32,000 nt of DNA from NCBI GenBank assembly GCA_963662715.1, contig OY759724.1, positions 3,030,001 through 3,062,000 of the forward strand. The letters are read 5' to 3'. Position numbers and translations under genes: made by a program. This stretch comes from Candidatus Omnitrophota bacterium. GTDB lineage: Bacteria > Omnitrophota > Gorgyraeia > Zapsychrales > JANLHA01. Numbering within the stretch: position 1 is the stretch's first letter; every line of letters begins with the position of its first letter. A model generated the notes under the pieces. That model made no database searches. It was given only the letters and a program-made list of their open reading frames with translations, and had not been told where the DNA came from. Positions 713 to 27,124 of this stretch are shown one piece after another.

Positions 713-724
713 GGAGGTGTGCAT

Positions 725-1503: not shown

Positions 1504-1518
1504 TGCCGTATTTAAACA

Positions 1519-1917
1519 ATGATAGAGAAAAAGATTTATTATCACGATACAGATGCCATTGGCATTGCTTATCACGCTTCTTATTTAAAAATTTTAGAAG
1601 AGGATAGAACTGAATTTTTTGAATCACAAGGAATTTCGGTTAAAGAGTTGCATAAAAGTGGCAAGCATTTTGTTATTAAAGATTTATATATTCGATATAA
1701 GCATCCTGCCAAATTTGGTGACGTAGTTGTTTGTGATTCGAGTATTAGAAAAATAACAGCAGCTCAAATTTTCTTTTCCCAAAAAATATTTAATAAAGCG
1801 AATAATGCCCTTCTTGTCGAAGCGGATATTATTTTAGTTATCGTCAATGAACAGTTGCATCCTGTGTTAATACCGGAAAATATAAATTCGTTATTATTAA
1901 ATGAAGTAATAACTTAA
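1519..1917 (+). CDS. Acyl-CoA thioesterase, YbgC/4HBT hot-dog family
   Basis: The N-terminal YYHDTDAIGIAYHASYLKILEEDRTEFF matches the catalytic Asp region of YbgC/FadM-type thioesterases. The length (132 aa) is typical. Confidence 0.8.
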   Translation: MIEKKIYYHDTDAIGIAYHASYLKILEEDRTEFFESQGISVKELHKSGKHFVIKDLYIRYKHPAKFGDVVVCDSSIRKITAAQIFFSQKIFNKANNALLVEADIILVIVNEQLHPVLIPENINSLLLNEVIT

Positions 1918-1931
1918 TCAGGAGGTGCAAA

Positions 1932-2111
1932 ATGCCAGGTGGTGATGGAAGAGGTCCAACAGGACAAGGTCGTGGTTTTGGCGGAGGGAACCCGGGGCCA
2001 GGGGGAGAATGTGTTTGCCCTAATTGCGGACAAAGGGTTCCGCATCAACAAGGAGTACCTTGTAATTCAGTAAACTGCCCAAAGTGTGGAAATAAGATGA
2101 CAAGAGGATAA
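1932..2111 (+). CDS. Gly/Arg-rich N-terminus fused to a 4-Cys zinc ribbon, 59 aa (not in ORF track)
   Basis: My translation is MPGGDGRGPTGQGRGFGGGNPGPGGECVCPNCGQRVPHQQGVPCNSVNCPKCGNKMTRG. GGAGG lies 6 nt upstream of the ATG, and the stop is TAA at 2109-2111. The N-terminal MPxGDGxGP...GRG motif resembles DUF5320 N-termini. Confidence 0.75.
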   Translation: MPGGDGRGPTGQGRGFGGGNPGPGGECVCPNCGQRVPHQQGVPCNSVNCPKCGNKMTRG

Positions 2112-2199
2112 TGGGGTTTCGGCATGTTGTAAGAATGCTGTAATCGTTTATCAATGGATATACCGTTGTCTATGATGTTTTCATATATATGGAAACATC

Positions 2200-2350
2200 T
2201 AAGGCATAGGTGATGCCTTAATTTAAGCGGGAATTCCCCGTCTGTGAAGGCGGGGATGTGAGCAAATCCAGCGACATTGCAGTCGCTGGACAAGCAACGC
2301 TTGAAATTATAGATTAAATTAAGTACCACGGCTGTGAAGCCGTGGGTATC
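2200..2350 (+). other. Cluster of four stable stem-loops in a 287-nt gap (candidate structured RNA or REP-like hairpins)
   Basis: Four stems are visible. TAAGGCAT/ATGCCTTA is at 2200-2220. CCCCGTCT-GTGA-AGGCGGGG is at 2236-2255. TCCAGCGAC-ATTGCA-GTCGCTGGA is at 2267-2290. CCACGGCT-GTGA-AGCCGTGG is at 2326-2345, followed by a T-rich stretch. Strand is inferred from the GNRA-type GUGA loops. Confidence 0.45.
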
Positions 2351-2398
2351 TATTTTAAAGAAAACTTAATTTTATTACGCATGGGAGAATATATTTAA

Positions 2399-3247
2399 AT
2401 GATTATATCAGTAGCGAGTGGTAAAGGAGGTACGGGAAAAACAATAGTTACGACAAGTTTGGCATTATCTATATCAAATGCCCAGATTCTTGATTGTGAT
2501 GTTGAAGAACCGAATTCTCATATTTTTATTCAGCCGAAAATTACAAATAAAGAGAAAATATATATTCCTGTCCCTCAGGTAAATGAATCTAAATGTAATT
2601 TTTGCGGGAAGTGTCAAGAAGTTTGTTTTTACAATGCCATTGCTGTTTTAAAAAATAAGGTTATGATTTTTCCGGAATTATGCCATGGATGCGGGTCCTG
2701 TAGTTATTTTTGTCCTCAGGCTGCGATTAAAGAGGTGAATAAAGAAATCGGTGTTGTTGAAATTGGCGAAAACAATGGCGTCCAGTTTGTTCATGGAAAA
2801 TTAAATATCGGCGAAGCAATGGCGCCCCCCCTTATCAGAGCTGTAAAAAATCATATTGACACAAACAAGGTGTCGATTATTGATGCCCCTCCAGGGACGT
2901 CCTGTCCTGTTATTGAATCTATAAAATTAAGTGATTTTTGTGTTTTGGTCACTGAGCCAACACCTTTTGGTTTAAATGATTTAAAGTTGGCCGTTGAGGT
3001 TATGCGGAAATTGAATATACCTTTTGGCGTTGTTGTTAATCGTTCTGATTTAGGTGACGATAAGACTGATTTATATTGCCAAGAGCAACATATTCCTATT
3101 TTAATGCGTATTCCTTTTGAGAAAAAAATAGCTGAAGCCTATTCGAAGGGAAAAACAATTGTAAAAGCTTTACCTGAATATCGAGAGCGCTTTCAACAAT
3201 TGTTTGAGGAAATCAAAAATATTCAACCTAAAAAAAATAATTTGTAA
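2399..3247 (+). CDS. MinD/ParA-superfamily P-loop ATPase with inserted 2x[4Fe-4S] ferredoxin domain (COG1149-type)
   Basis: It has a deviant Walker A (SGKGGTGKT). An inserted CNFCGKCQEVC...CHGCGSCSYFCP segment follows. The Walker B-like IIDAPPGTSCP is also present. Confidence 0.9.
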   Translation: MIISVASGKGGTGKTIVTTSLALSISNAQILDCDVEEPNSHIFIQPKITNKEKIYIPVPQVNESKCNFCGKCQEVCFYNAIAVLKNKVMIFPELCHGCGSCSYFCPQAAIKEVNKEIGVVEIGENNGVQFVHGKLNIGEAMAPPLIRAVKNHIDTNKVSIIDAPPGTSCPVIESIKLSDFCVLVTEPTPFGLNDLKLAVEVMRKLNIPFGVVVNRSDLGDDKTDLYCQEQHIPILMRIPFEKKIAEAYSKGKTIVKALPEYRERFQQLFEEIKNIQPKKNNL

Positions 3248-3261
3248 AGGATATCGTGGAA

Positions 3262-4122
3262 ATGAAACAAATTGTAGTTATAAGCGGGAAAGGCGGAACA
3301 GGAAAAACGGTTTTAACTGCCAGTCTTGCTGCTTTAGCCGATAAAAAAATTATGGCTGATTGCGATGTTGACGCGGCGGATTTGCATTTATTGCTTCAGC
3401 CTGATATTCAGCAACGGCAGGAATTTAAAAGCGGTTTTACAGCAAAAATTAATCAGGATAAATGTGTTCAATGTGGTAAATGTGGAGAAATTTGCAGGTT
3501 TAACGCTATTGCCGAAAATTTTGTCATTGATCCTGTTTCTTGTGAAGGATGCGGATTTTGTCATTTTGCCTGTCCTTCGCAGGCTATAACCATGGAAGAA
3601 AATCTTTCCGGGGAATGGTTTACATCGAACACACGTTTCGGCCCCATGGTTCATGCCAAGTTGGGCATTGCTGAAGAAAACTCAGGAAAGCTAGTCAGTT
3701 TAGTGCGAAAGAAAGCGAAAGAATTAGCGGAGAAAGAAAACAGTCAGTGGGTGATTATTGACGGATCCCCCGGGATCGGGTGTCCGGTTATCGCATCCTT
3801 ATCAGGGGTTGATTGCGCCGTTGTTGTTACTGAGCCGACTCTTTCAGGAATGCATGATGCTTTAAGAGTTATGGAAGTAGCTAAACATTTCAAAATATTA
3901 ACGAAAGTTATTATTAATAAATATGATTTAAATACGGAGATGTCTGAAAAAATAGTTGAGGCATGTAAAGATTTTGATGTTGAAGTGATCGGGAAAATAG
4001 GTTTCGATAAGTCTATTGTGAAGGCAATGGTACAGGGCAAGACCATAGTTGAAGCAGCGGATGAAAATATAAAAAAAAGAGTAACTGAAATTTGGGAAAA
4101 ATTAAGGCAAGGGTTGCAATAA
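3262..4122 (+). CDS. MinD/ParA-superfamily P-loop ATPase with inserted ferredoxin domain (COG1149-type), paralog 2
   Basis: It has SGKGGTGKT, CVQCGKCGEIC...CEGCGFCHFACP and IIDGSPGIGCP. The track start GTG 3256 is only 4 nt from AGGA, while ATG 3262 has better spacing and gives MKQIVVISGKGG, parallel to the paralog. Confidence 0.9.
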   Translation: MKQIVVISGKGGTGKTVLTASLAALADKKIMADCDVDAADLHLLLQPDIQQRQEFKSGFTAKINQDKCVQCGKCGEICRFNAIAENFVIDPVSCEGCGFCHFACPSQAITMEENLSGEWFTSNTRFGPMVHAKLGIAEENSGKLVSLVRKKAKELAEKENSQWVIIDGSPGIGCPVIASLSGVDCAVVVTEPTLSGMHDALRVMEVAKHFKILTKVIINKYDLNTEMSEKIVEACKDFDVEVIGKIGFDKSIVKAMVQGKTIVEAADENIKKRVTEIWEKLRQGLQ

Positions 4123-4145
4123 CATTTTTAAAACAGGAGTTAAAG

Positions 4146-4754
4146 ATGAACGATCTTCAATGGAAATTTTCAGACAAATTTAGAAGCCACTGGATAACAG
4201 TAAAATTTTATAAAGAAAAGCCTGATTTAAAAGAAGCCAGAAGGCCCAAAAATATAAGGTTTTGCGAAGCGACGAGAGAAGCGATGTTTGAACCTGTTCT
4301 TTTAAACAAAAAGGCTATCTCCTGTGCAGGAGCACAATATGCTTTTGGCTGGAAATTAAATGATAAAAATGATTTTCCTGGAGATTGTTATGATAAACGT
4401 CAAACGAAAAATAATATCATAAAATCCATAATCGAACAGACGCCTTATTTAAAGAAGCCTTTTGAATATATAGGATTAAATACCGACGATACCCCTGATC
4501 TTATTATGTCTTATATCCCCCCGGAAGAAATTATGAATTTAATGAAAATATATCAAAATCAAAAGGGAGAGAATATAGATGTCTCTTTTAGTACGATGAT
4601 GTCTATTTGTTCGGGTATAGCCGTTAAGACTTTTTTGGAAAATAAAATTAGTCTTTCTTTTGGCTGTGATGACTCTCGCAAATACGCCGATTTAAGACGA
4701 GAAAATATGGCCATCGGTATTCCAAAGACATTGTTTGATGTTTTTATTGATTGA
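4146..4754 (+). CDS. DUF169 (COG2043-like) protein
   Basis: IRFCEATREAMFEPVLLNKKAISCAGAQYAFGW resembles the conserved DUF169 core. ATG 4146 follows AGGAG. The track start TTG 4092 lies inside the upstream gene and is unlikely. Confidence 0.65.
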   Translation: MNDLQWKFSDKFRSHWITVKFYKEKPDLKEARRPKNIRFCEATREAMFEPVLLNKKAISCAGAQYAFGWKLNDKNDFPGDCYDKRQTKNNIIKSIIEQTPYLKKPFEYIGLNTDDTPDLIMSYIPPEEIMNLMKIYQNQKGENIDVSFSTMMSICSGIAVKTFLENKISLSFGCDDSRKYADLRRENMAIGIPKTLFDVFID

Positions 4755-11680: not shown

Positions 11681-11947
11681 ATGCCGACTTATCAATATTT
11701 ATGTGAATCTTGTGGCCACCAGTTTGAAAAAATGCAGGGAATGACGGATCCGCGGCTTAAAGTTTGCCCTAAGTGCGGGAAAACTTTAAGCAGATTAATA
11801 GGAACAGGAGGAGGAATTATTATCAAAGGAAGCAGATCCACAATGAGTAATTTAAAAAATGATTTTTCTTCGGGACAAACTTGCTGTGGAAGAGAAGAAC
11901 GCTGCGATACTCCTCCATGTTCGGATGATGGTGTATGTAAAAGGTGA
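11681..11947 (+). CDS. FmdB-family zinc-ribbon protein (CxxC_CxxC_SSSS type)
   Basis: MPTYQYLCESCGHQFE...VCPKCG is the family signature. The C-terminal tail is Cys-rich. Confidence 0.85.
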   Translation: MPTYQYLCESCGHQFEKMQGMTDPRLKVCPKCGKTLSRLIGTGGGIIIKGSRSTMSNLKNDFSSGQTCCGREERCDTPPCSDDGVCKR

Positions 11948-11954
11948 AATCGAT

Positions 11955-12704
11955 ATGGATTTAGCAATTCATCAGCTTATCTATTTTTTGATCGGCTTTG
12001 GGTCGGGGTGGGCTAGCGGCATGTTTGGGATAGGAGGAGGCTCTATAAGGACACCGTTGCTTTATTTTGCCGGTTTACCGTTACGGTCCGCATTCGGTAT
12101 TAATTTTATTGTGATTCCCTTTTCTTCCTTTACGGGCGCATTAACCCATAAAAGAAACATCGCGAACGAAATAGGGATTTGGGTAATTATTGCTGGTGTT
12201 TTTGGTGAATTACTGGGTGCGTATCACGTAGGTCTTATTCCGGTTAAATTTTTAACAATTATATATGTCATTATTTGTTTTGTTGTGGTCTTCGGTATTT
12301 TGAAGGAAAGAATATTTTCTGTTTTTGCCAAAACAAAACAAGCTGACAAAAAAACATTTGCTATAGCTTCATTTTTTGTAAGTTATATTACTGGTCTGAG
12401 GGGCGGAAGCGGAGGACAAATTTTTCCGGCACTTTTTAAAACATTGGGAATGGAAACACGTCAGTCTATTGCTACATCACTGGTCGTATCAATGTTTACT
12501 GCTCTCGGCGCAATTCCTATATATTGGGCAAGAGGAGATTTAGTTTGGTTGCCGGCCATATCGGTTTTAATTGGTTCAATCATAGGAGCAAGAATGGGAA
12601 GCAAATTTTCTTTAAAAACAAAACCAGTATGGTTAGAAAACGGTCTTGCATTAGTTACCATAATTTTGGCCTTTTTAGTTTTGATTAAAGGAGTATTTCA
12701 ATAA
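11955..12704 (+). CDS. TauE/SafE-family anion (sulfite-type) exporter membrane protein
   Basis: It has FGIGGGSIRTPLL and a second half with LRGGSGGQIF, plus about 7-8 TM helices. ATG 11955 is chosen because the track start 11859 lies 89 nt inside the fmdB-like gene. Confidence 0.75.
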   Translation: MDLAIHQLIYFLIGFGSGWASGMFGIGGGSIRTPLLYFAGLPLRSAFGINFIVIPFSSFTGALTHKRNIANEIGIWVIIAGVFGELLGAYHVGLIPVKFLTIIYVIICFVVVFGILKERIFSVFAKTKQADKKTFAIASFFVSYITGLRGGSGGQIFPALFKTLGMETRQSIATSLVVSMFTALGAIPIYWARGDLVWLPAISVLIGSIIGARMGSKFSLKTKPVWLENGLALVTIILAFLVLIKGVFQ

Positions 12705-12729
12705 TGAATAATGAAAACAGGGGGATGGA

Positions 12730-14073
12730 ATGAAAAAAATAGTTGTAATAGGTTGTTCCGGTTGTGGCGCCATGGCGGCCTTAATGTTAAAAAAATTAAG
12801 ACCCTCTTTGGATGTAACAATAATCAGAGAGCCGGAAGAGAAGGGATTATTAACAAGGTGTGCAACACCCTATATCTGTTGCGGCGATGTGATGGTAGAT
12901 GCATCTTATAAAGATGATAATATTTTTACGGAACAAGGAATTAAATTAATAAGTATGAAAGCTGTAGATATATATAAGGATAAAAAGAATGTAAAAACAT
13001 CCGATGGAAATATTTATTCTTATGACAAACTTGTTTTGGCGACCGGCGCTAAACCTGTTATGCCTCCAGTCCCGGGAGTTAATTTGCCAGGGGTTTTTAC
13101 TCTCCGCACAAGCGGTGATGCCGTGAATATTCTTAATTGGATAAATTCTCAACGTGTAAAAAATGTTGTATTGGTAGGTGCCGGTGCAATAGGTATTGAG
13201 AAGGCCTATTTGCTTTCCCGCCGGGGTCTTAAAGTGACACTTGTGGAAATGCAAGCTCATGTTATGCCAACTATTTTAGATAGTGATATGAGTGAAGATT
13301 TGCAGACCTATATGTTGCAGAAAGGCGTGCATCTGAAATTAAATAAAAAGATAATTTCAATTAATGGTCAGGAACATGTGGAGGGAATAAAGCTGGATTC
13401 AGGTGAAGAAATAAACGCGGAAATGGTGGTTATTTCAGCAGGGGCGCGTTGCAATATTGAACTTGCTAAAAATGCGGGATTAGATTTGGGTGATCTTGGG
13501 TTAAAAGTTGATGATTATTTACAAACTTCGGACTCTGATATATTTGCCGGAGGAGATCTTATAGAATACAAAAATCATATTACGGGCAAGCCCATGCTTG
13601 GACAATTACGTCCAAACGCCGTAATTGCGGGCAGGATTATTGCCAAAAATATTTTAGGTTTTGATATTAAATATCCTTCTTTAATTAATAGTTTTTGCAC
13701 TAAATTTTTTGATAAATCAATGGCCGGAGCAGGTATGACCGAATTTGAGGCAAAACAGGAAGGTATTGAAGTTATTGCCGCAAAACAAAAATCTACAAGT
13801 ATGCATTCTATGATGAGAGAGCGCAAGCCGTATGTTGTTAAATTGATATTTGATAAACAAAGTCAAAAATTAATAGGCGGGCAAATTGTCAGTGATTCCG
13901 AGTGCCCGGTAAAATCCATTGATGTTATTGCGATGGCTATAAAATGTAATTTGAAAATATTGGATTTAATTACTTTTAGAGGAGCGGGCCAACCGGAGTT
14001 GTCTCCTGACCCCGGCAAGGAACCCATAGCGTTAGCAGCTGAGAATGTTTTTGCTAAATTGCACAATGGTTAG
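12730..14073 (+). CDS. Pyridine nucleotide-disulfide oxidoreductase, CoA-disulfide reductase / NADH oxidase (single-Cys) family
   Basis: The FAD fold is KIVVIGCSGCGAMAA. The single redox Cys in RCATPY aligns with the (S/N)CxLPY of Nox/CoADR. The NAD fold is VVLVGAGAIGIE...VTLVE, and GGD follows near the C-terminal FAD motif. Confidence 0.8.
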   Translation: MKKIVVIGCSGCGAMAALMLKKLRPSLDVTIIREPEEKGLLTRCATPYICCGDVMVDASYKDDNIFTEQGIKLISMKAVDIYKDKKNVKTSDGNIYSYDKLVLATGAKPVMPPVPGVNLPGVFTLRTSGDAVNILNWINSQRVKNVVLVGAGAIGIEKAYLLSRRGLKVTLVEMQAHVMPTILDSDMSEDLQTYMLQKGVHLKLNKKIISINGQEHVEGIKLDSGEEINAEMVVISAGARCNIELAKNAGLDLGDLGLKVDDYLQTSDSDIFAGGDLIEYKNHITGKPMLGQLRPNAVIAGRIIAKNILGFDIKYPSLINSFCTKFFDKSMAGAGMTEFEAKQEGIEVIAAKQKSTSMHSMMRERKPYVVKLIFDKQSQKLIGGQIVSDSECPVKSIDVIAMAIKCNLKILDLITFRGAGQPELSPDPGKEPIALAAENVFAKLHNG

Positions 14074-14440: not shown

Positions 14441-14764
14441 ATGCATAAAGTAAATACTAAAAAATGTCTTGGATGCGGGGTATGCATTAATAGTTGTCCT
14501 CAAGGGGCTATATTTATAATCGACGATAAAGCAAGTATTGACTCAGTTAAATGCATTGATTGTGGCAGGTGTGTTCAAGCTTGCCCGCAAGGTGCAATTT
14601 ATTCAGATGGCTCATCAAAGCAGGAGATTATTCCCGGGCAGTCTGTAATGTCTTCAGGATTTGGAATGGGAGGTGGCCAAGGACGCGGTAGGGGGCGTGG
14701 TTTAGGAAGATGCTTGCGCGATGGGAGAGGAAAAGGCAGAGGTGGTGGGGGCAGGAGAAGATAA
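14441..14764 (+). CDS. 2x[4Fe-4S] ferredoxin fused to a Gly/Arg-rich (RGG) C-terminal tail
   Basis: CLGCGVCINSCP and CIDCGRCVQACP are followed by GFGMGGGQGRGRGRGLGRCLRDGRGKGRGGGGRRR. Confidence 0.85.
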   Translation: MHKVNTKKCLGCGVCINSCPQGAIFIIDDKASIDSVKCIDCGRCVQACPQGAIYSDGSSKQEIIPGQSVMSSGFGMGGGQGRGRGRGLGRCLRDGRGKGRGGGGRRR

Positions 14765-14793
14765 ATTTTTAACTAATATTATGGAGGTCAAAA

Positions 14794-15144
14794 ATGCCAT
14801 GGATTAAAGAAGAAAAATGTGTTAGCTGCGGAATTTGTATTGAAAAATGCCCGGTAGATGCTATTTCAATGCAAACTGAAAAAGCACAGATCAATATGGA
14901 GAAGTGTATCCATTGTGGGACATGTCACAGTGTTTGTCCGCAGGAGGCGGTTAGGCACGACGGAGAGAAAATACCTCAATATATAGAACTTAATGTTGAG
15001 AAGACAAAAAAGTTTATGGATCTTTGTGCCAAACATTTAGGTTCGGAAGATGAGGGGAAAAAATGTTTGGAAAGGATGAAAAAAATTTTTAACAAAGAAA
15101 AGCTTATTATAGAAAAAACATTAGAAGAGCTTGATAAATTATAG
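14794..15144 (+). CDS. 2x[4Fe-4S] ferredoxin with helical C-terminal extension
   Basis: CVSCGICIEKCP and CIHCGTCHSVCP are followed by a K/E-rich extension of about 55 aa. Confidence 0.85.
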   Translation: MPWIKEEKCVSCGICIEKCPVDAISMQTEKAQINMEKCIHCGTCHSVCPQEAVRHDGEKIPQYIELNVEKTKKFMDLCAKHLGSEDEGKKCLERMKKIFNKEKLIIEKTLEELDKL

Positions 15145-17962: not shown

Positions 17963-19537
17963 ATGGTCAATTTTACTGGAAAAAGATGCCGATTAAGAAT
18001 TGTTGTTCCTGCATACCCTTCTTTGAATATCTATTCTCATATAGCGGATAAGACTACAGCTTTAGGCCCGGTATGTGTTGCCACTATGGTAAATAAATTG
18101 CCCCAATGGGATGTTGAAGTTATTGATGAAAATAATTTCCGCGGATACGGCCCCCGAAATCAACTCGGAGAAGTCGATCACGAATCTTTACAAAAGACCA
18201 GGCCGGCGGACATTGTTGGTCTGTATGGCGGCTTGACCAGCACGATTCCCCGTCTGTATAACATAGCCCGCTTTTATAAAGACAAGGGAGTTGTGACGAT
18301 TGCAGGCGGGCAGCATTTTGTCGATGAGAATATTTTTGAAGCACTGTCAAACGGCATTGACTTTGTGGTTATCGGGGAGGGGGAAGAAACAATAAAAGAG
18401 CTTTTAATCGCTATACAAAATAAGAATGAAATTAATAACATTAAAGGCATCGCTTATCGGAACGGTAAAGATATTGTCAAAACGACTCAGCGAAAACCAT
18501 TGACTGATTTTGATAAATTACCTTTTCCGGATTTTTCTTTAGTGCGATATGCCAAAATCAAAATTTATCCTGTTGAACGGATTCGCGGTTGCGGTATGAA
18601 TTGCGAATTTTGCACTGTAAAAGGAAAACCTCGCTTTGCTTCTCCTGAACGGCTACTCGAACATATTAGTCATCTTGTTGAAACAAGTGATGCAAGGCAT
18701 TTTTTTATCGTTGATGATCTTTTTGGCCAGCAAAGAAATGAAACAATAAGGTTTTGCAATATATTAAAGGATTATCAGGAAAAGATACATCGAAGGCTGG
18801 ATATAAATGTTCAAATAAGATTAGATAAAGCCAAAGACCATGAATTGCTTTCGGCCATGCGCCAGGCAGGTATTAATATGGTGTCCATTGGGTTTGAATC
18901 GCCCATTAAAGAAGAATTAGAAGCAATGAATAAACATGTGACGCCGGAAGATATGATTCAATTTTCAAAGACATTTCATAAGTTTGGATTTTTAGTCCAC
19001 GGCATGTTTATTTTTGGTTATCCATCGCGGGAAGGCGGAAACATTAATATATCGGCTGATGAAAGGGTGAAAATTTTTCGAAGGTTTATCAAAGAGGCAA
19101 AGATTGACACGATACAAATTTTACTTCCGGTACCTTTACCGGGGACGCAATTAAGAGAAAGGCTTAAAAAACAAGAAAGGATTTATCCCCTTCAGGATGT
19201 CGGATGGGAATATTATGATGGTAATTTTCCATTATTTGAACCTGATAATCCAATGAGCGCTGAACAGATGCAGTCTTGTGTCAGAAAGATTATGGGAAAA
19301 TTCTATCAATTTAAATATTTTTTTAAAATAGGTTTAAATATTTTTTCCTTCCCCGGCTTGATTTTCTTTCTGCACAATATTAAGAAGGGCTGGAGGAAAT
19401 GGTATCGTCCTTGGCGTAACGACCTAATACGTTTTGGCGGGTGGATCATTGTGAAAGGATGGAATGCAAAATTTAAAAAAGATCCTTTTTTAAGAAAATT
19501 ACACAGCGCCAAATTGCATTTATTAAAAAGGCCTTAA
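17963..19537 (+). CDS. B12-binding-domain radical SAM protein (class B-like)
   Basis: It has an N-terminal Rossmann-like B12-domain region (VVIGEGEETIKEL) and a radical SAM motif CGMNCEFCTV. The C-terminal 70 aa are hydrophobic and W/K/R-rich. Confidence 0.8.
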   Translation: MVNFTGKRCRLRIVVPAYPSLNIYSHIADKTTALGPVCVATMVNKLPQWDVEVIDENNFRGYGPRNQLGEVDHESLQKTRPADIVGLYGGLTSTIPRLYNIARFYKDKGVVTIAGGQHFVDENIFEALSNGIDFVVIGEGEETIKELLIAIQNKNEINNIKGIAYRNGKDIVKTTQRKPLTDFDKLPFPDFSLVRYAKIKIYPVERIRGCGMNCEFCTVKGKPRFASPERLLEHISHLVETSDARHFFIVDDLFGQQRNETIRFCNILKDYQEKIHRRLDINVQIRLDKAKDHELLSAMRQAGINMVSIGFESPIKEELEAMNKHVTPEDMIQFSKTFHKFGFLVHGMFIFGYPSREGGNINISADERVKIFRRFIKEAKIDTIQILLPVPLPGTQLRERLKKQERIYPLQDVGWEYYDGNFPLFEPDNPMSAEQMQSCVRKIMGKFYQFKYFFKIGLNIFSFPGLIFFLHNIKKGWRKWYRPWRNDLIRFGGWIIVKGWNAKFKKDPFLRKLHSAKLHLLKRP

Positions 19538-19585: not shown

Positions 19586-19903
19586 ATGGAAGTTATTTTG
19601 ACTGATGAAAACTTCGAACAAGAAATAATTAAATCGGATTTGCCATGTTTGGTTGATTTTGGCGCCGATTGGTGTGCGCCTTGCCGCATGGTCGCACCAA
19701 TAATGAAATCAATTGCAAAAGAGTATCAAGGAAAACTGAAGGTTGGCACAGTCAATGTGGATCAAGCACCTAAGACTGCTTCTAAATACGGTATTACAAG
19801 TATTCCCGCATTGTTTCTTTTTAAGAATGGCAAAATAGTCAACAAGGCCGTTGGTGCGGCTCCAAAAGAACAGGTGGTTTCTATGTTTAAAGAATACATA
19901 TAA
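19586..19903 (+). CDS. trxA: Thioredoxin
   Basis: It has the WCAPCRM active site, the cis-Pro region SIPALFLFKNG, and a typical length of 105 aa. Confidence 0.93.
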   Translation: MEVILTDENFEQEIIKSDLPCLVDFGADWCAPCRMVAPIMKSIAKEYQGKLKVGTVNVDQAPKTASKYGITSIPALFLFKNGKIVNKAVGAAPKEQVVSMFKEYI

Positions 19904-20158: not shown

Positions 20159-20701
20159 GTGATTAACAGTATTGAATTATGCCTGAAACATAACGGAAGG
20201 GTGGACGGAAAAAAGAAGCTTTTATTTAAGCCGGGGCTTAATATTGTTATTGGCCCTAATGGCTCCGGGAAAAGTTCATTGTTAGAAGCTATCTATAACT
20301 GTCCGGATTGTATAAAACATAATAACGATAAAATGAGATATCATTATTTTAATAGTGAAACGATGAATCCGCATAGATCTGAAAAGCATTTTAAAGGAAT
20401 CAGCGGATCGATTATTCGTGTGCGTGCCATGTTTTCATCTCACGGAGAAACAATGAGGGATGTTTTAAGATATATTAATTTTCACCCCGGCGATTGCCTG
20501 CTTCTTGATGAACCCGAATCAGGGCATGATTTAAAATGGATTTTAAAAATTCGCAAAGGGTTGGATGCAATTTGCAAGAAGGGAACACAGGTTATTATTG
20601 CAACACATCACCCGGTGTTTTGGAATGCGGACAATATTATTGAATTAAAAAAAAATTATCTTAAGAAAACATTAAACACATTAAAGAAGAATCTTCCTTG
20701 A
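20159..20701 (+). CDS. Minimal (180 aa) ABC/SMC-like P-loop ATPase
   Basis: It has Walker A GPNGSGKSS, a signature-like FSSHGE, Walker B LLLDEPESG and an H-loop ATHH. It has a GTG start with GAGGAA upstream. Confidence 0.7.
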   Translation: MINSIELCLKHNGRVDGKKKLLFKPGLNIVIGPNGSGKSSLLEAIYNCPDCIKHNNDKMRYHYFNSETMNPHRSEKHFKGISGSIIRVRAMFSSHGETMRDVLRYINFHPGDCLLLDEPESGHDLKWILKIRKGLDAICKKGTQVIIATHHPVFWNADNIIELKKNYLKKTLNTLKKNLP

Positions 20702-20719
20702 TTAAAAGAGTCAAATTTT

Positions 20720-21100
20720 ATGAAAAATAATGGGAACATAAATATTTCTCAAAATAAGGAAAAACAGAAGCATAATCATCGGCATTCAATAAAGGAAAGG
20801 CTTTTTTTGTTTTTTAAATGGTGGCTTGTTTTTACCGGCATTTATTCCGTCTCTTCTGTATGCCCTTTTTGCGGGAAGGTAGGCTGCCCCGTTGGTCTCG
20901 GAAGCGCTGGGGCCCTTGGAGCCTTTTTTGCTTTATTTATGCAAAATTGGAAACACCTGTTGCAAAAAATTCATTTTTTAAAAAAGGAAAAAACAGAGGT
21001 AACGAAAAAATTCGAAAAAGAAAAATTTTTCGCTAAGGGAGGAGGGGGATATGGAAAAGAAGGATTTGATAATAATCGGCGCGGGTCCGGCAGGTCTTAG
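20720..21100 (+). CDS. Small membrane protein with CPFCGKVGCP motif (hypothetical)
   Basis: A basic N-terminus is followed by two hydrophobic segments flanking CxxCxxxxC. The 3' end overlaps the next gene by 50 nt, so the C-terminal tail and exact extent are uncertain. Confidence 0.45.
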   Translation: MKNNGNINISQNKEKQKHNHRHSIKERLFLFFKWWLVFTGIYSVSSVCPFCGKVGCPVGLGSAGALGAFFALFMQNWKHLLQKIHFLKKEKTEVTKKFEKEKFFAKGGGGYGKEGFDNNRRGSGRS

Positions 21101-21977
21101 TGCGGCAATTTGTGCGACGGATTTGGGCATTAAACCGCTAGTATTAGAAGAAAATATGCCCGGTGGTTTAGCCTCTGAGATTCCTGTGTTGGAAAACTAT
21201 CCGGGTTTTAGTGAAGGAATCAGCGGTAAAGATTTAATAGATAAATTGATTGAACAATGCAACAAAGCCTCGATAGAAATACATCAATTTGAAAAAGTTT
21301 TTAATCTGAAATTTGAAGCAGACGTAAAAATTATTGAAACAGATAAAGCTCAATATAGAACCAATATTGTACTTATTGCTTCCGGAAGGCATCTCAGCAT
21401 GCTTGGTGTTCCCGGTGAAAAAGAATTCAAGGGGAGAGGAGTAAGTTATTGCGCAGTATGCGACCGTGCTTTTTTTAAGGATAGGAAAGTGTCCGTTATC
21501 GGAAAAGATGTTCATGCTGTTGAAGTTGCTTTATATTTAGCTGAATTGGCATCATTAGTGAATTTTATAAATTTAGGTAATTGGCATAAGCCAAATGATA
21601 TTTTCCTGAAAAAATTAGAAGGCCGAAATATAAATGTTCTTTCCGGGGTTGAAGTGAAGGAAATCAATGGAGACATTAAAGTAAAAACTGTGGTTTTATC
21701 GGATAAGGAAACAGGAGATATTCGCGAGATAGAAACAGACGGAGTGTTTTTACAGTTAGAAGAGGAGCCTAATAGTCAATTAGCAAAAAATGCCGGTATA
21801 AAGGTAAACGAAAAAGGGTATATCCTTGTTGATGAGAAAGGAAAAACTAATTTGGATGGTGTTTATGCCGCTGGTGACGTGACGGATGGTTCGGTAAAAA
21901 AAGTAATAACATCTGCGGCCCAGGCATTTGTAGCTGTCAATGATATATTCGAGAAAAATCAAGGAAGGTTTCATTAA
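21051..21977 (+). CDS. Thioredoxin-reductase-like flavoprotein lacking NADPH-binding motifs (FFTR/DFTR-like)
   Basis: The FAD fold IIIGAGPAGLSAA, the redox CAVCD and the C-terminal GVYAAGDV are present. However, the NADPH GGGNxA motif reads GKDVHA, and HRRxxxR reads NLGNWHK. Confidence 0.85.
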   Translation: MEKKDLIIIGAGPAGLSAAICATDLGIKPLVLEENMPGGLASEIPVLENYPGFSEGISGKDLIDKLIEQCNKASIEIHQFEKVFNLKFEADVKIIETDKAQYRTNIVLIASGRHLSMLGVPGEKEFKGRGVSYCAVCDRAFFKDRKVSVIGKDVHAVEVALYLAELASLVNFINLGNWHKPNDIFLKKLEGRNINVLSGVEVKEINGDIKVKTVVLSDKETGDIREIETDGVFLQLEEEPNSQLAKNAGIKVNEKGYILVDEKGKTNLDGVYAAGDVTDGSVKKVITSAAQAFVAVNDIFEKNQGRFH

Positions 21978-21979
21978 AT

Positions 21980-23752
21980 ATGCAGGAAAAGCGCATAGGT
22001 GTTTTTATTTGTCATTGCGGTAAGAATATTGCCGGAGGTGTGGATATAAAGGCTCTTGTCGAAAGCTCAAGAAGTCTTAAGGGAGTCGTCTTTGTTACAG
22101 AAAATAAATTTTCCTGTTCTGAAGAAGGTCAGGTTGCTGTTCAGGGTGCCATAAAGCACGAGCGTTTAGACAGAATTATTGTTGCTGCTTGTGATCCTGG
22201 GTTGCATCTACTGACTTTTCAAAGGTGCGGGCAGAAAGCGGGAATAGATTCTGCCTTCGTAGATTTAATTGATATTAGAAAATGGACAATGCACAGTAGC
22301 CCTCATAAGGTTGATCCTCATCAAGCCTTAGAGAATTGCAAAAGACATATCGAACAAGCTGTAAAAAGGATGCGGTTAAAACGCAAAATCCCCAGGGTTA
22401 CTGTAAAAGTAAACTCTTCGGTTTTAGTTATCGGAGGAGGTGTCGCAGGATTAGAGGCCTCTTTAGATTTGGCGGATAAAGGATACAAAGTACATCTTGT
22501 TGAAAGGCTTGCGACCATCGGAGGCAAAATGGCCCTCCTTTATAAGGTCTTTCCTACAAATGATTGTGCGCCTTGTATATTAGCTCCCAAAACGGCGTAC
22601 GCGAATGTGCATCCGAATATAAATTTGTTGACAAATGCGGAAGTTCAAAGCGTGGAAGGGTATATAGGAAATTACACCGTTATCGTTAATCAAAAACCGC
22701 GTTACATTGACGAAAATAAATGTACTGGCTGTGGGTTATGTATAGAGAAGTGTCCCACAAAAATGGTTGATAACGAATTTTCCGCCGGAATTGGGGAACG
22801 CAAAGCCATCTATATTCCTTATGATCAGGCAATACCCAAAAAGGCAGTTATTGACAGTGCAAGTTGTCTGTATTTTAAAAAAGGGGCTTGCCGGTTATGC
22901 GAAAAAACCTGTCCGGCTCAGGCCGTAGATTTTGAACAACAGCCTAAGTCAATCAAGTTAAAAGTAGGCGCGATAATTGTTGCTACGGGTTTTGATGAAT
23001 ATAATCCTGTGTCGAAAACGGAGTATGGTTATGGACGTTACAAAAATGTTATCACCCAGTTTCAGCTAGCAAGATTTTTAGATATAGACGGCCCTACGAA
23101 AGGAAAACTTTTAAGACCTTCAGACGGCAAAGAACCTAAAAATATTGTTATGATTCAATGTGTGGGCTCAAGGGATGAAAATGCGAATAAATATTGTTCT
23201 GCTGTTTGTTGCATGTATGCCTTAAAGCACGCCCAGATAATAAAAGAGATGGTTTTGCCCAATACCGAAATTTATATTTGTTATATTGACATACGCACCG
23301 CAGGAAAAGATTTTGAGGAATATTATAAATATACAAGGGGATTGGGAATTAATTTTATTCGCGGAAGACCGGCTGAGATAGCAGAAAATGCCAAGACACG
23401 AAATCTTATTTTAAAAGTTGAAGATCCTGATATCAATGCCTTGATTAAAGTCGAAGCGGATTTAGTTGTGTTGTCCTGCGCGACTGTGCCTTCCAAAGGG
23501 ACACAAAATCTTGCCGGGATACTAGGGATACATTTGGATGAAAATGGATTTTTTAAAGAAGTCCATCCTAAACTGCGTCCGGTAGAAACGAATGTCCGCG
23601 GCATTTATATTTGCGGTTCTGCACAGGGCCCCAAAGATATTCCGAATTCAATTGTCCAGGCAAAAGCGGTGGCTTCCTGCGCGGATGGCGAACTAAGAAA
23701 AGGAGAATTAGAACTTCCCGAAGCTATTGTAAAAGCAAATAAAGTCCCTTAA
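21980..23752 (+). CDS. hdrA: Heterodisulfide reductase subunit A-like flavo-Fe-S protein
   Basis: It has the N-terminal IGVFICHCGKNIAG, the FAD fold VLVIGGGVAGLEASLDLA, the ferredoxin motifs CTGCGLCIEKCP and CRLCEKTCP, and GIYICGSAQGPKDI near the C-terminus. Confidence 0.88.
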   Translation: MQEKRIGVFICHCGKNIAGGVDIKALVESSRSLKGVVFVTENKFSCSEEGQVAVQGAIKHERLDRIIVAACDPGLHLLTFQRCGQKAGIDSAFVDLIDIRKWTMHSSPHKVDPHQALENCKRHIEQAVKRMRLKRKIPRVTVKVNSSVLVIGGGVAGLEASLDLADKGYKVHLVERLATIGGKMALLYKVFPTNDCAPCILAPKTAYANVHPNINLLTNAEVQSVEGYIGNYTVIVNQKPRYIDENKCTGCGLCIEKCPTKMVDNEFSAGIGERKAIYIPYDQAIPKKAVIDSASCLYFKKGACRLCEKTCPAQAVDFEQQPKSIKLKVGAIIVATGFDEYNPVSKTEYGYGRYKNVITQFQLARFLDIDGPTKGKLLRPSDGKEPKNIVMIQCVGSRDENANKYCSAVCCMYALKHAQIIKEMVLPNTEIYICYIDIRTAGKDFEEYYKYTRGLGINFIRGRPAEIAENAKTRNLILKVEDPDINALIKVEADLVVLSCATVPSKGTQNLAGILGIHLDENGFFKEVHPKLRPVETNVRGIYICGSAQGPKDIPNSIVQAKAVASCADGELRKGELELPEAIVKANKVP

Positions 23753-23786: not shown

Positions 23787-24041
23787 ATGTTAAAACAAGA
23801 ACAAGAAAAAATGGAAACAAAATGCAAGAAAATTATTGCGGAGCAGTTAGGAGTAAAATTCGAAGAATTAAAGCCAGATGCTTCTTTTGCTGATGATCTT
23901 GGTGCTGATTCTTTGGATTTGGTAGAACTTATTATGGCGTTAGAAGAAGAATTTAGTATTGAAATTCCTGATGAAGAAGCTGAAAAAATCAAAACAGTTG
24001 GCCAGGCAATAGAATATGTAAATAAAAGAATAGAGAAATAA
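23787..24041 (+). CDS. acpP: Acyl carrier protein (canonical AcpP-type)
   Basis: [65 protein letters not shown] is near-colinear with E. coli AcpP, including the DSL phosphopantetheine Ser. GAGGAG lies 7 nt upstream of ATG 23787 (alternative start ATG 23811). Confidence 0.93.
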
Positions 24042-24067: not shown

Positions 24068-24337
24068 ATGGCAGAGGTTTATGTGGAAGAATTTATGTCA
24101 CCCGGATGTGTCGGTTGTCCGGTGGTAAAGGAAATGCTTAAAGTTTTATCAGAAGAAGTAACGGGCGAGGTAACGATAGAAGAAGTCGACATCACAGTTG
24201 ATACGGCACGGGCATCTCAATACGGCGTCATGTCTGTTCCGGCTATAGCTATTAACGGTGAGCTTAAATTTATGGGCGTGCCTAAAAAAGAAGAATTAAA
24301 GCAGGCGCTCGTTGAAGGGCTTAAGGCAGATGAATAG
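24068..24337 (+). CDS. Small thioredoxin/glutaredoxin-like redoxin (MJ0307/Thioredoxin_3-like)
   Basis: It has the active site GCVGCP, the cis-Pro region SVPAIAINGE, and a length of 89 aa. Confidence 0.8.
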   Translation: MAEVYVEEFMSPGCVGCPVVKEMLKVLSEEVTGEVTIEEVDITVDTARASQYGVMSVPAIAINGELKFMGVPKKEELKQALVEGLKADE

Positions 24338-24872
24338 TGAAGAAAAAAATAGTGATTTGGGAATAACGGTTTCCATATCGGAATGTGAGCCAAATTTTAA
24401 ATTTGAGGTTTTATCTCATCCTGATGCCAGCGGATTAAATGCCTGCTTCAATTGCGGGACATGTACGGCAGGATGTCCTATTCATGAAGTTTTTCCTGAA
24501 TATAACCCCAGGAAACTGGCAAAGATGGTAAAGCTTGGTATGAAAAAACAGGTTTTAAGCAGCCCCTATATTTGGTATTGCGCTACCTGTCATAATTGCG
24601 AACAACGCTGCCCCCAAAATGTTAAATTTTTCAATATTTTGAATGTCTTGAAAAATTTGGCAGCCAGACAAGGTTATGCGCCGTCCTGCTGGATTCAACA
24701 GACCGAACAAATAGCAAAAACAGGCATAGTCTTTCCGACAGAAGATAGTTGGATCAAAAGAAGACAGGAAATGTCTCTCCCTTTTTTAAATCTAGATGGG
24801 GAAAAGGCAAAGAGAATAATTGAATCAAGCGGGATGAATGAAATTAAATCGAAGGTTAATTTGAATGAGTAA
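24330..24872 (+). CDS. hdrC: Heterodisulfide reductase subunit C-like 2x[4Fe-4S] protein
   Basis: It has CFNCGTCTAGCP and CATCHNCEQRCP. ATG 24330 overlaps the upstream stop, whereas the track start 24312 is a TTG inside the upstream gene. Confidence 0.85.
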   Translation: MNSEEKNSDLGITVSISECEPNFKFEVLSHPDASGLNACFNCGTCTAGCPIHEVFPEYNPRKLAKMVKLGMKKQVLSSPYIWYCATCHNCEQRCPQNVKFFNILNVLKNLAARQGYAPSCWIQQTEQIAKTGIVFPTEDSWIKRRQEMSLPFLNLDGEKAKRIIESSGMNEIKSKVNLNE

Positions 24873-25740
24873 ATATGCTTTATTTTTAGGTTGCACGACC
24901 CCAACTCAGGTACCGCAGTATGAGTTGTCCGCAAGATGGGTTTGTAAATATTTTGGCATTGAATTAATCGATATTAAAGATTTTGTTTGCTGTGGTATTA
25001 ATCAGGTTAATCTGGATATTGAGACAGGTTTTTCCTTGGCAGCTATGAATTTGGCTTTAGCGGAATCCGAAAAATTAGATGTTTTAACGCTTTGCGCCGC
25101 CTGCACCGGCGCCCTGGCTGAAACAATCGAAAAACTGAAGGACGAAGCAAGCAGAGATAAAGTAAACAAAAAATTAAAGACGGTCGGATTAAAATATACA
25201 GGCCAATCTAAAGTAAAACATATATCGAGAGTTCTTTACGAAGATATCGGGTTAGAAACAATAAAAAAGGGAATAAAGAAAGATTTATCCGCACTGCATG
25301 TGGCACCTCATTACGGCTGCCATTATTTAAAACCAAAATCTGCTTTTGGTGATTTTGAAAAACCCGATAATCCCAAAAGGCTTCACCATCTCATTTCGGC
25401 TGCCGGGGCCCATCCTATTGAATATGAGACGCTTGGTTTATGCTGCGGGGGCAAAACTTTTCCTGTTACTAAAAATCTGGCTCATTCATTGGTACAAAAA
25501 AAGTTTGATAATTTGATGGATAAAGAAGCGGATGCGATGGTTCTTCAATGTCAGACTTGTTATCTTATGTATAGCGGCCAACAAAAAGAGATAAATGAAA
25601 ATTATGGCAAACGATATGATTTTCCGGTAATTCTGTATCCCCAGCTTCTCGGATTGGCTCTGGGCGCGGAGCCCAAGAAAGATTTAGGCCTTGATTTAAA
25701 CGAAATTTCAGTAAATCGAATTTTGGATAAGATATTATAA
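24865..25740 (+). CDS. hdrB: Heterodisulfide reductase subunit B-like protein (two CCG domains)
   Basis: The CCG-domain Cys patterns are FLGCT...VCCGIN...CAACTG and HYGCH...LCCGG...CQTC. It overlaps hdrC by 8 nt. Confidence 0.85.
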   Translation: MSKYALFLGCTTPTQVPQYELSARWVCKYFGIELIDIKDFVCCGINQVNLDIETGFSLAAMNLALAESEKLDVLTLCAACTGALAETIEKLKDEASRDKVNKKLKTVGLKYTGQSKVKHISRVLYEDIGLETIKKGIKKDLSALHVAPHYGCHYLKPKSAFGDFEKPDNPKRLHHLISAAGAHPIEYETLGLCCGGKTFPVTKNLAHSLVQKKFDNLMDKEADAMVLQCQTCYLMYSGQQKEINENYGKRYDFPVILYPQLLGLALGAEPKKDLGLDLNEISVNRILDKIL

Positions 25741-26494: not shown

Positions 26495-27124
26495 ATGAAA
26501 ATAAAACCATTTGAAGAACATGTGGATCAATATGAAGATTGGTTTGAGAAAAATTATTGGGTCTATCAGTCAGAACTTCAGGCAGTAAAAGAATTGTTGC
26601 CTAAGCAAGGAAACGGCATTGAAATTGGTGTAGGAAGCGGTCGTTTTGCAGATCCCTTGGGAATACGTTTAGGTGTTGAGCCTTCGCCTAAAATGAGAGC
26701 ACTGGCAAAAGCTCGAGGGATAGAAGTTATTGATGGAGTAGCCGAAGATATCCTTTTTAAAAATCCTCGATTTGATTTCGTGCTGATGGTCACAACGATC
26801 TGTTTTCTGGATGATATAGAAAAAGCATTTAAAAAAATCCATAGGATTCTAAACCCAAGCGGGCATTTGGTCATAGGATTTATCGATAAAAACAGCCCTG
26901 TTGGAAAGATTTACCAGAAACACAAAAACGAAAGCGAGTTCTATAAAGTTGCAACTTTCTATTCTGTAGATAAAGTTGTGTCTTATTTAAAAAATGCCGG
27001 ATTTAGCAACTTTGTATTTAAGCAGACTATTTTCAAAAATTTAAAAGAAATTAAAGACATTGAACCTATTCAGGATGGTTTTGGTGCGGGTTCTTTTGTC
27101 GTCATTAGAGCTTTAAAGGAATGA
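26495..27124 (+). CDS. Class I SAM-dependent methyltransferase
   Basis: Motif I is GIEIGVGSGRFA, followed by the post-I acidic residue and LNPSGHLVIGF (a Methyltransf_11-like layout). Confidence 0.8.
   Translation: MKIKPFEEHVDQYEDWFEKNYWVYQSELQAVKELLPKQGNGIEIGVGSGRFADPLGIRLGVEPSPKMRALAKARGIEVIDGVAEDILFKNPRFDFVLMVTTICFLDDIEKAFKKIHRILNPSGHLVIGFIDKNSPVGKIYQKHKNESEFYKVATFYSVDKVVSYLKNAGFSNFVFKQTIFKNLKEIKDIEPIQDGFGAGSFVVIRALKE

Follow-up and report, generated by a model that had tools for sequence, protein, structure and literature searches.

Thioredoxin reductase (TrxR) homologues of the TrxB type that lack the NADPH-binding motifs of the canonical NADPH-dependent enzymes (NTRs) are already known, with FFTR, DFTR, DTR and DDOR as described examples, and such proteins are common in metagenomes. 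The FFTR of clostridia is defined as a TrxR homologue without either NAD(P)H motif, and FFTR genes are paired with trxA and not with hdrABC (PMC10880999). The DFTR of methanogens (PMC8154056 and PMC8498797) is an NTR homologue that has switched from NADPH to a deazaflavin. The cyanobacterial FFTR, formerly named DTR, carries a C-terminal tail with a conserved Trp that is stacked against the FAD of the other monomer (PMC8154056), and in DDOR the thioredoxin-binding site is modified and each subunit has a second flavin (PMC9025218). Here, we compare these enzymes with a TrxR-like flavoprotein of a Candidatus Omnitrophota bacterium, which is encoded directly upstream of hdrA in a stretch of 32,000 nucleotides (contig OY759724.1, positions 3,030,001 to 3,062,000; hereafter the window). 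An earlier annotation of the window made from its sequence alone, hereafter the original prediction, had proposed that this protein has lost both NADPH-binding motifs and that it receives its electrons from HdrA or ferredoxin. We report that the apparent loss of NADPH use is a family trait, and that the flavoprotein gene is the first gene of a conserved module with the order TrxR-like, HdrA, small CVGC thioredoxin, HdrC and HdrB.

The NADPH site of the TrxR-like flavoprotein

The gene and the motifs in question are located in the window as follows.

21051..21977, + strand: TrxR-like flavoprotein of 308 residues; FAD site, CAVC disulfide, Asp acid catalyst and Phe-Phe dock for thioredoxin kept, NAD(P)H site dismantled
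21078..21095, + strand: FAD-binding GxGxxG motif, here GAGPAG (residues 10-15)
21450..21464, + strand: redox-active CAVCD (residues 134-138)
21501..21518, + strand: GKDVHA (residues 151-156), at the place of the NADPH-binding GxGxxA loop (GGGNTA in Escherichia coli)
21570..21590, + strand: NLGNWHK (residues 174-180), at the place of the 2'-phosphate-binding HRRxxxR

The open reading frame is preceded by a strong Shine-Dalgarno sequence, GGAGGAGGGGGATATG. Pfam family PF07992 (Pyr_redox_2) matched its product end to end (positions 1-291 of 291, 5.6e-44), and the best sequence matches in the PDB were TrxRs of the NTR type, with 183 bits for the enzyme of Mycobacterium smegmatis. Against TIGR01292, the equivalog model for thioredoxin-disulfide reductase, the protein scored 278.6 bits, which is below the curated cut-off of 343.45. 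Retention of the CAVCD and FAD motifs was borne out, since the protein keeps GAGPAG, the C-terminal GD motif (G275 D276), the disulfide cysteines C134 and C137, Asp138, and Phe141/Phe142, the pair by which E. coli TrxR docks thioredoxin. Indeed, G10, G12, P13, A14, G15, C134, A135, C137, D138, F141, F142 and the GD motif were invariant in 49 family members.

The two NADPH motifs presented a different picture. HMMER aligned the protein to E. coli TrxR (PDB 1TDF/1TRB/1F6M) without gaps, with VSVIGKDVHAVEVALYLA..VNFINLGNWHKPNDIF opposite VAVIGGGNTAVEEALYLS..VHLIHRRDGFRAEKIL, and the same register was obtained in full-length alignments to the TrxRs of M. smegmatis, T. africanus and B. cereus. In these HMMER alignments to solved TrxRs, GKDVHA was faced by GGGNTA or GGGDSA, and NLGNWHK by HRRDGFR or HRRDEFR. 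The substitution of GKDVHA for GGGNTA and of NLGNWHK for HRRDGFR, which had originally been read by eye, was thus confirmed, and there is no intact GxGxxA plus HRRxxxR hidden by a mis-registration.

An AlphaFold2 model based on the alignment of 49 sequences reached a pLDDT of 87.6 and represented an ordinary TrxR fold with no added docking domain. It matched FR-state TrxRs with TM values of 0.84-0.89, and its best structural matches in a Foldseek search of the PDB were NTRs. In this model, confidence dropped below 50 at residues 180-182, exactly at the former HRRxxxR loop, and the beta-alpha-beta unit of the second Rossmann domain was predicted to be intact (strand 146-151, helix 153-164, strand 169-174). 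A pseudogene, chance or a sequencing error could be ruled out as the source of the altered motifs, since the open reading frame is intact, orthologues are conserved and the fold was predicted with confidence.

A search of 5.8 billion proteins returned a compact family of mostly unnamed proteins. The named members, with names from a minority of the database entries, belong to Candidatus Omnitrophica/Omnitrophota, Aureabacteria, Latescibacteria and Aminicenantes. No member of the family has HRRxxxR; together with metagenome loci, 144 sequences without it were compiled, and GxGxx[AG] was still formally present in 77 of these 144 relatives. At the two places, GEGSPA and CLRPRIE are typical of clade 1 (Omnitrophota type), as GEDRRA and CGKEELC are of clade 2 (Latescibacteria/Aminicenantes type). 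NLGNWHK marks a small sublineage, of which the window protein is a member. In a 94%-identical orthologue at locus L159 (metagenome loci are numbered with L, proteins with P), NLGNWHK is identical and the former GxGxxA loop reads GEGVHA. Over the 160 nucleotides around the motifs, the window and L159 differ at four nucleotides, three of them in the former GxGxxA codons, where the adjacent codons GAA GGT GTC of L159 are AAA GAT GTT in the window. The loss of GxGxxA in the window, by which the central Gly became Asp, is a strain-specific extra change. Because three of the four differences fall in its codons, the sequences suggest that the old dinucleotide loop is drifting freely under relaxed constraint. 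Of the two predicted motif losses, that of HRRxxxR therefore stands for the family as a whole, while that of GxGxxA applies only to the strain.

A column comparison of 27 canonical NTRs with 137 family members, in the numbering of the E. coli precursor, identified five NTR-invariant residues that are replaced, four of them within the two NADPH motifs. In the family, G154 is replaced by Glu, H176 by Cys (Asn in the window protein), R177 by Leu, R182 by Glu or Cys (Glu in 58%, a charge reversal; Lys in the window protein), and G245 by Glu in 94% of the members. In the family alignment, beta-2 does not end in the acidic residue that would be expected of an NADH-specific enzyme. Judged from these replaced contact residues, the family as a whole has probably given up NADPH, and the prediction that the enzyme probably does not use this cofactor is thereby supported.

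Clade 2, for instance with the relatives P0103, P0116 and L120, has Cys at the places of both the former His175 and the former Arg181 (C-x5-C, for instance CGKEELC), which align with residues 174 and 180 of the window protein. Clade 1 has the first Cys only, and the window sublineage has Asn at that place. By its sequence, the C-x5-C of clade 2 could form a redox or metal site that is new to the former NADPH pocket.

Relationship to other thioredoxin reductase lineages

The position of the family was investigated with a neighbour-joining tree of 96 non-redundant sequences and 100 bootstraps. Bacillus and Streptococcus NTRs, which are 33-39% identical, served only as the canonical outgroup, and FFTR and DFTR references were absent from the tree. 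The motif-less family was monophyletic in 82 of the 100 bootstraps. Its sister group consisted of Bathyarchaeota-type TrxRs with canonical GGGNxA and HRRxxxR, and the joint clade was recovered in 99 of 100. Alignment and phylogeny, which had been proposed as a check, thus returned the correct register and a monophyletic motif-less family for a tree that covered the NTRs and the family.

The Bathyarchaeota-type NTRs (for example P0092) are 50-53% identical to the window protein and share its length, fold, FAD motifs, CxxC-D and the Phe-Phe dock for thioredoxin. Unlike these NTRs, the window protein has a degenerate GxGxxA and no HRRxxxR, scores below the TIGR01292 cut-off and is encoded in an hdr operon, and its family has exchanged Gly245 for Glu. 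The TrxR of Thermoplasma acidophilum (PDB 3CTY), an archaeal enzyme, was likewise among the best matches (172.8 bits, TM 0.87, 33% identity). This enzyme reportedly makes poor use of NAD(P)H, its physiological donor is said to be unknown, and we know of no linkage of it to Hdr.

The clostridial FFTR resembles the window protein in lacking both NAD(P)H motifs. By analogy, the route from an Fe-S protein via FAD and CxxC to thioredoxin would also be expected for the window protein. The two proteins are nevertheless distant: PDB 6GNA matched with 122 bits, compared with 183 for the NTRs, its matching span is about 22 residues shorter (query 1-295 versus chain 4-276), and it was outside the best 50 structural matches of the Foldseek search against the PDB. 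When the PDB was searched with the motif segment alone, E. coli TrxR was returned and FFTR was not. The cyanobacterial FFTR (Gloeobacter, PDB 5J60/6XTF) and DDOR are, like the window family, NTR-derived flavoproteins without an NADPH site. The Gloeobacter enzyme showed 27% identity and Foldseek ranks of 42-45, and its FAD-stacking Trp tail was not found in the family, whose members end about 5-12 residues past the last helix with no conserved Trp. In contrast to DDOR, the family keeps the thioredoxin-docking F141/F142 invariant. DFTR was compared by description only; in contrast to this methanogen enzyme, the window family has bacterial hosts and no F420 context at its loci. Since the tree places the family beside the NTRs, the FFTR score and the structural ranks are low, the Trp tail is missing and the dock is kept, we conclude from sequence comparison that the family probably lost the NADPH site independently and does not belong to FFTR, DTR or DDOR. 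The original prediction had cited FFTR and DFTR as precedents. They hold as TrxR homologues without NADPH motifs, but the window protein probably lies outside the FFTR lineage, in a clade sister to archaeal-type NTRs.

In a full HMMER scan of 1.84 billion representatives of clusters at 50% identity, the family made up two clusters (P0016 and P0242), beyond which the scores fell off steeply. Of the nearest 144 cluster representatives (P0241-P0389), 89 failed a strict test for GxGxx[AG] plus HRRxxxR. Motif-degenerate TrxB relatives are therefore common in metagenomes, which makes the bare loss of the motifs less surprising. Such proteins nevertheless routinely carry an annotation as NADPH-dependent enzymes. 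Because of this count, NADPH-independent TrxB relatives may, as far as their sequences tell, be much more common than the literature suggests.

Three TrxRs without NADPH motifs were observed in Thermoproteota/Bathyarchaeia at L007:8001-8861, L015:8001-8855 and L036:8001-8924. They read GNSNEA, GNNEEA and GGGQEA, respectively, have no HRRxxxR, and from their sequences look like another independent motif-less lineage.

A conserved module with hdrA, hdrC and hdrB

In the methanogen complex, electrons from MvhD reach the flavin through the C-terminal ferredoxin domain of HdrA (PMC9012536), and for HdrA2B2C2 it has been described that HdrABC can run on reduced ferredoxin alone (PMC5296606). The partners of the TrxR-like flavoprotein in the window are the following.

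21980..23752, + strand: HdrA of 590 residues, methanogen type without the C-terminal ferredoxin domain, starting 2 nt past the stop of the TrxR-like gene
24068..24337, + strand: small thioredoxin of 89 residues, MJ0307 type, active site CVGC, the presumed substrate of the TrxR-like protein (PF13192 4.7e-15; TIGR00411 74.8 bits)
24312..24872, + strand: HdrC with two CxxCxxCxxxC [4Fe-4S] motifs (residues 45 and 90), likely ATG at 24330 (TIGR03290 106 bits)
24865..25740, + strand: HdrB with two CCG Cys motifs for non-cubane clusters (residues 10-80 and 152-232; two PF02754 stretches)

Loci of the family were gathered by exact-protein lookups and by searching metagenome contigs with the NADPH-domain segment, for which an alignment specific to the family was used. 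In 58 of the 60 family loci with at least 700 nt after the TrxR-like gene, hdrA was the next gene downstream, and the small thioredoxin gene, hdrC and hdrB then followed in that order wherever the sequence continued. Both exceptions are the same contig of one Omnitrophica metagenome-assembled genome (MAG), obtained from two sources (L001/L002). The junction of the TrxR-like gene and hdrA was commonly 2 nt or a 4-nt overlap. When the lookups were seeded with HdrA, the full module was recovered in three of three cases (one WOR-3 MAG and two unassigned contigs). L159 also carries the module, and the most divergent family representative, P0242 (L161; 45% identity), is followed by the start of hdrA. 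The placement of the TrxR-like gene directly upstream of hdrA, on which the prediction had relied, is thus not accidental.

Furthermore, the pairwise distances of the TrxR-like protein and HdrA correlated (r = 0.90, 36 loci). Co-inheritance and close spacing characterize the five genes. No hdr adjacency was found for the other motif-less TrxR lineages at L007, L015, L036 or P0243 (L160), and the hdr linkage is therefore specific to this family. The module is spread over metagenomes from anoxic lakes, sediments and the subsurface, with uncultivated anaerobes of the Omnitrophota, Aminicenantes, Latescibacteria, WOR-3 and Aureabacteria as hosts. The small thioredoxin gene always lies between hdrA and hdrC; CVGC was present in 36 of 37 distinct small thioredoxins, and the surrounding FMSPGCVGCP is near-invariant.

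The HdrA of the window matched PDB 9sfi/8rvu/5odc with 580-592 bits (query 1-583 versus chain 1-576 of about 655, 654-659) and the model NF040770 with 696 bits over profile positions 1-568 of 777. It has the features expected for FAD, the N-terminal cluster, the cluster of the TrxR domain and the inserted 2x[4Fe-4S] domain. All linked HdrAs have a length of 590-600 residues and are 70-87% identical across phyla. The C-terminal 2x[4Fe-4S] ferredoxin domain was absent in every locus, while all other cluster ligands are kept (Cys 11, 13, 46, 71, 196, 199, 248-258, 296-311, 394 and 406-411). This domain is a feature of class A1, and the linked HdrA, without it, corresponds to an 'A1-C'-like class (PMC12054007). 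Glu356 positions Lys409, and the K409/E356 pair at the flavin has been proposed as a marker of bifurcating HdrAs (PMC12054007). K409 is kept as K416 in the linked HdrA and E356 is Ala364 in 37 of 37 sequences, a replacement that suggests an altered and possibly non-bifurcating flavin chemistry. The HdrB of the window scored 240.6 bits against TIGR03288, under the equivalog cut-off of 345.

The module shares the HdrA/HdrB/HdrC core and its cluster ligands with HdrABC-MvhAGD, HdrABC-FdhAB, HdrA2B2C2 and FlxABCD-HdrABC, as well as the modular principle by which an input or partner module is added onto HdrA. It differs from these complexes in that the partner is a TrxR-like flavoprotein with a small thioredoxin instead of a hydrogenase, a formate dehydrogenase, an F420 site or an NADH dehydrogenase, and in that HdrA has lost the C-terminal ferredoxin domain and E356. 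Genes for MvhD/FlpD, hydrogenase, Flx, FdhB, GltD or F420-type proteins were not found in the annotated loci. Only three redox-substrate sites are encoded by the five genes, namely the CxxC of the TrxR-like protein, the active site of HdrB and, within HdrA, the inserted ferredoxin domain. A description of the TrxB-like-HdrA-thioredoxin-HdrC-HdrB operon was not found in full-text searches or in the consulted papers on Hdr and thioredoxin, among them an Omnitrophota genome study, the HdrA classification work and the HdrA2 work. An operon of this composition, with an HdrA that lacks the C-terminal ferredoxin domain, thus apparently has not been described. An affiliation with the sHdr/LbpA sulfur-oxidation system was not supported, as the loci read have no genes for a lipoate-binding protein and no duplicated hdrB or hdrC, although DsrE and TauE occur near the module in L003.

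Further genes of the window that recur near the module, or could connect with it, are listed here.

14441..14764 and 14794..15144, + strand: two free 2x[4Fe-4S] ferredoxins, candidate low-potential donors (Pfam Fer4 families)
19586..19903, + strand: TrxA-type thioredoxin of 105 residues with WCAPC, a possible second substrate (TIGR01068 114.7 bits, above cut-off)
23787..24041, + strand: acyl carrier protein, AcpP-type, between hdrA and the small thioredoxin gene (NF002149 120.8 bits)
26495..27124, + strand: UbiE-like SAM methyltransferase of 209 residues, a recurrent neighbour of the module (PF08241, PF13489)

The acyl carrier protein was considered as a core part of the module that would offer its phosphopantetheine thiol as a disulfide substrate of HdrB. 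This was ruled out, since the insertion is lineage-specific and confined to the window, L087 and L159. The two free ferredoxins were considered as the detached C-terminal domain of HdrA, which was unsupported: their similarity is that of generic 2x[4Fe-4S] proteins, and they are encoded 7 kb off. A ferredoxin of 97 residues lies in the neighbourhood of the module in L158. The upstream trxA was found in the same arrangement in L001 and L159. It is directly preceded in the window by a B12-binding radical SAM protein of 524 residues (17963-19537), an arrangement that is kept at 80% identity in L001 and is present in L159. Between trxA and the TrxR-like gene (20159-21100), a truncated SMC/ABC-type ATPase of 180 residues and a Cys-rich open reading frame of 126 residues are encoded. 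The latter, a putative membrane protein with CPFCGKVGCP, overlaps the start of the TrxR-like gene and matched no family; the ATPase is encoded in L001, L087 and L159 as well. A PHROGs scan of the two proteins was uninformative.

UbiE-like methyltransferases of about 190-210 residues, with a weak match to the DVU_1556 methyltransferase family, were also observed at L001:8159-8791, L003:11401-11964, L005:6312-6869, L157:476-1033 and L158:8469-9053, and by the module of L159. Clade-2 modules are accompanied by a protein of 349-351 residues with a C-terminal thioredoxin domain (L005:11505-12554, L157:8534-9583 and L158:2588-3643). In the window (11859-14073) and in L003 (4501-6988), a CoA-disulfide-reductase-like flavoprotein (447 residues; TIGR03385 269 bits, below cut-off) occurs together with a TauE-type sulfite exporter; in L003, the two lie directly upstream of the module, along with a DsrE protein. 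These genes may point to a connection with sulfur or low-molecular-weight thiols. Near the start of the window, a gene cluster (719-4754) encodes a thioesterase, a DUF169 protein and two each of Nitro_FeMo-Co (DUF) proteins and CbiA/ParA-Fer4 P-loop proteins; genes of these types were found again close to the module in L003, L005, L156 and L157.

Electron supply to the module and its meaning

In the reading that we favour, the TrxR-like protein is a pyridine-nucleotide-independent thioredoxin reductase that, as the product of the first gene of the module, is fed through the Fe-S clusters of HdrA or through ferredoxin. Based on sequence and gene order, we give this reading about an even chance. 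The flavoprotein would dock on HdrA, which in turn would be charged by reduced ferredoxin via its inserted ferredoxin domain. The FAD of the TrxR-like protein would then be reduced one electron at a time by an Fe-S cluster of HdrA, most plausibly the N-terminal one. [quoted passage not shown] From FAD, the electrons would pass to Cys134/Cys137 and on to the small thioredoxin of the operon, and probably also to the upstream WCAPC TrxA, while a second disulfide would be reduced by HdrBC or coupled to it. The net result would be a ferredoxin-driven, NADPH-free reduction of thioredoxin that is built into an Hdr complex. For the transfer of electrons from an Fe-S protein to the flavin of a TrxR, FFTR is the precedent (PMC10880999 and PMC8154056). 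The prediction that HdrA or ferredoxin serves as donor draws support from the conserved hdrA linkage, with HdrA and free ferredoxin both as candidates.

Several observations weigh against supply through HdrA. Co-transcription is no proof of physical docking, and a fusion of TrxR and HdrA was not found among the best 120 matches of either protein. Instead of the TrxR-like protein, HdrB could be the enzyme that acts on the small thioredoxin. In one Omnitrophota MAG (L001/L002), the TrxR-like gene stands without adjacent hdr genes. The replacement of E356 by Ala in HdrA makes the energetic logic and the direction of electron flow less certain. Lastly, about half of the relatives keep a formal GxGxxA, and those of the GEGSPA type may keep some dinucleotide binding.

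A free-standing, FFTR-like enzyme, whose FAD is reduced by soluble ferredoxin and which is merely co-regulated with hdr through a shared thiol/disulfide homeostasis, is a possible but not a probable alternative. FFTRs show that a TrxR without an NADPH site is able to take electrons from free ferredoxin, two ferredoxin genes are available at 14441-15144, the gene of L001/L002 has no hdr neighbours, and the AlphaFold2 model has no extra domain for docking. However, the linkage to HdrA is near-obligate in both directions and, with junctions of 2 nt or overlapping genes in several phyla, tighter than co-regulation usually needs. Moreover, the linked HdrA lacks its usual domain for electron entry with no replacement input module encoded, and the other motif-less TrxR lineages (L007, L015, L036 and L160) are not beside Hdr. 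We consider it unlikely that electrons flow in reverse, such that the TrxR-like protein oxidizes the reduced small thioredoxin and feeds the flavin of HdrA, where the pair would be split between ferredoxin and a high-potential disulfide at HdrB. In principle, TrxR chemistry can run both ways, no other two-electron donor module is encoded, and the TrxR-like protein takes the position in the genome that an input partner would have, next to an HdrA without the MvhD-facing domain. With a potential of about -270 mV, however, thioredoxin is a poor donor for ferredoxin unless the substrate of HdrB is far more positive than CoM-S-S-CoB. E356, the proposed bifurcation marker, is Ala in all 37 HdrAs.

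Continued binding of NAD(P)H, at least by the GEGSPA relatives, would make the protein an ordinary NTR or an NAD(P)H-oxidizing input to HdrA comparable to FlxA or the GltD insert. The formal GxGxx[AG] in 77 of the 144 relatives, the Rossmann beta-alpha-beta unit that is predicted to be intact, and the label 'thioredoxin reductase (NADPH)' that database pipelines attach to relatives are consistent with such binding. We nevertheless regard it as improbable, because no member has HRRxxxR, whose last Arg is charge-reversed (Glu in 58%), Gly245 is Glu in 94%, beta-2 does not end in an acidic residue for NADH, the central loop Gly is Asp in the window, and the score falls under the TIGR01292 cut-off. 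Another hydride donor such as F420H2 is very improbable. To our knowledge, bacteria of the Omnitrophota, Aminicenantes, Latescibacteria and WOR-3 type are not users of F420, the loci read contain no F420-related gene, and the tight linkage to Hdr would be left unexplained, even though a change to a deazaflavin is possible for a TrxR homologue, as the methanogen DFTR demonstrates (PMC8154056 and PMC8498797).

If supply of the TrxR-like protein through HdrA is carried one step further, the five proteins would form a new class of Hdr super-complex, in which an NAD(P)H-blind TrxR replaces the hydrogenase, formate-dehydrogenase, F420 or NADH module and the thioredoxin couple is the direct third arm of a flavin-based machine for electron bifurcation or confurcation. 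For example, reduced ferredoxin and a weak thiol donor at HdrB could jointly reduce thioredoxin, or the reverse could take place. This proposal is tentative, and we think it more likely to fail than to hold.

The label 'thioredoxin reductase (NADPH)' that pipelines give to proteins of the family is probably wrong. The findings touch on the question of how strict anaerobes without an NADPH-dependent enzyme keep their thioredoxin reduced, and on the role of bacterial HdrABC in organisms without coenzyme M or B. Being compact, clonable and already equipped with a candidate substrate in the CVGC thioredoxin, the five-gene module makes the function of a bacterial HdrABC directly testable. If the flavoprotein does dock on HdrA, it would represent a new kind of partner module for the Hdr family and, after FFTR and DFTR, a third independent route by which TrxB has lost its dependence on pyridine nucleotides. 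Should the super-complex exist, a physiological partner would be identified for a bacterial HdrABC, and Omnitrophota, Aminicenantes, Latescibacteria, WOR-3 and Aureabacteria would possess an NADPH-free, energy-coupled hub of thiol redox metabolism.

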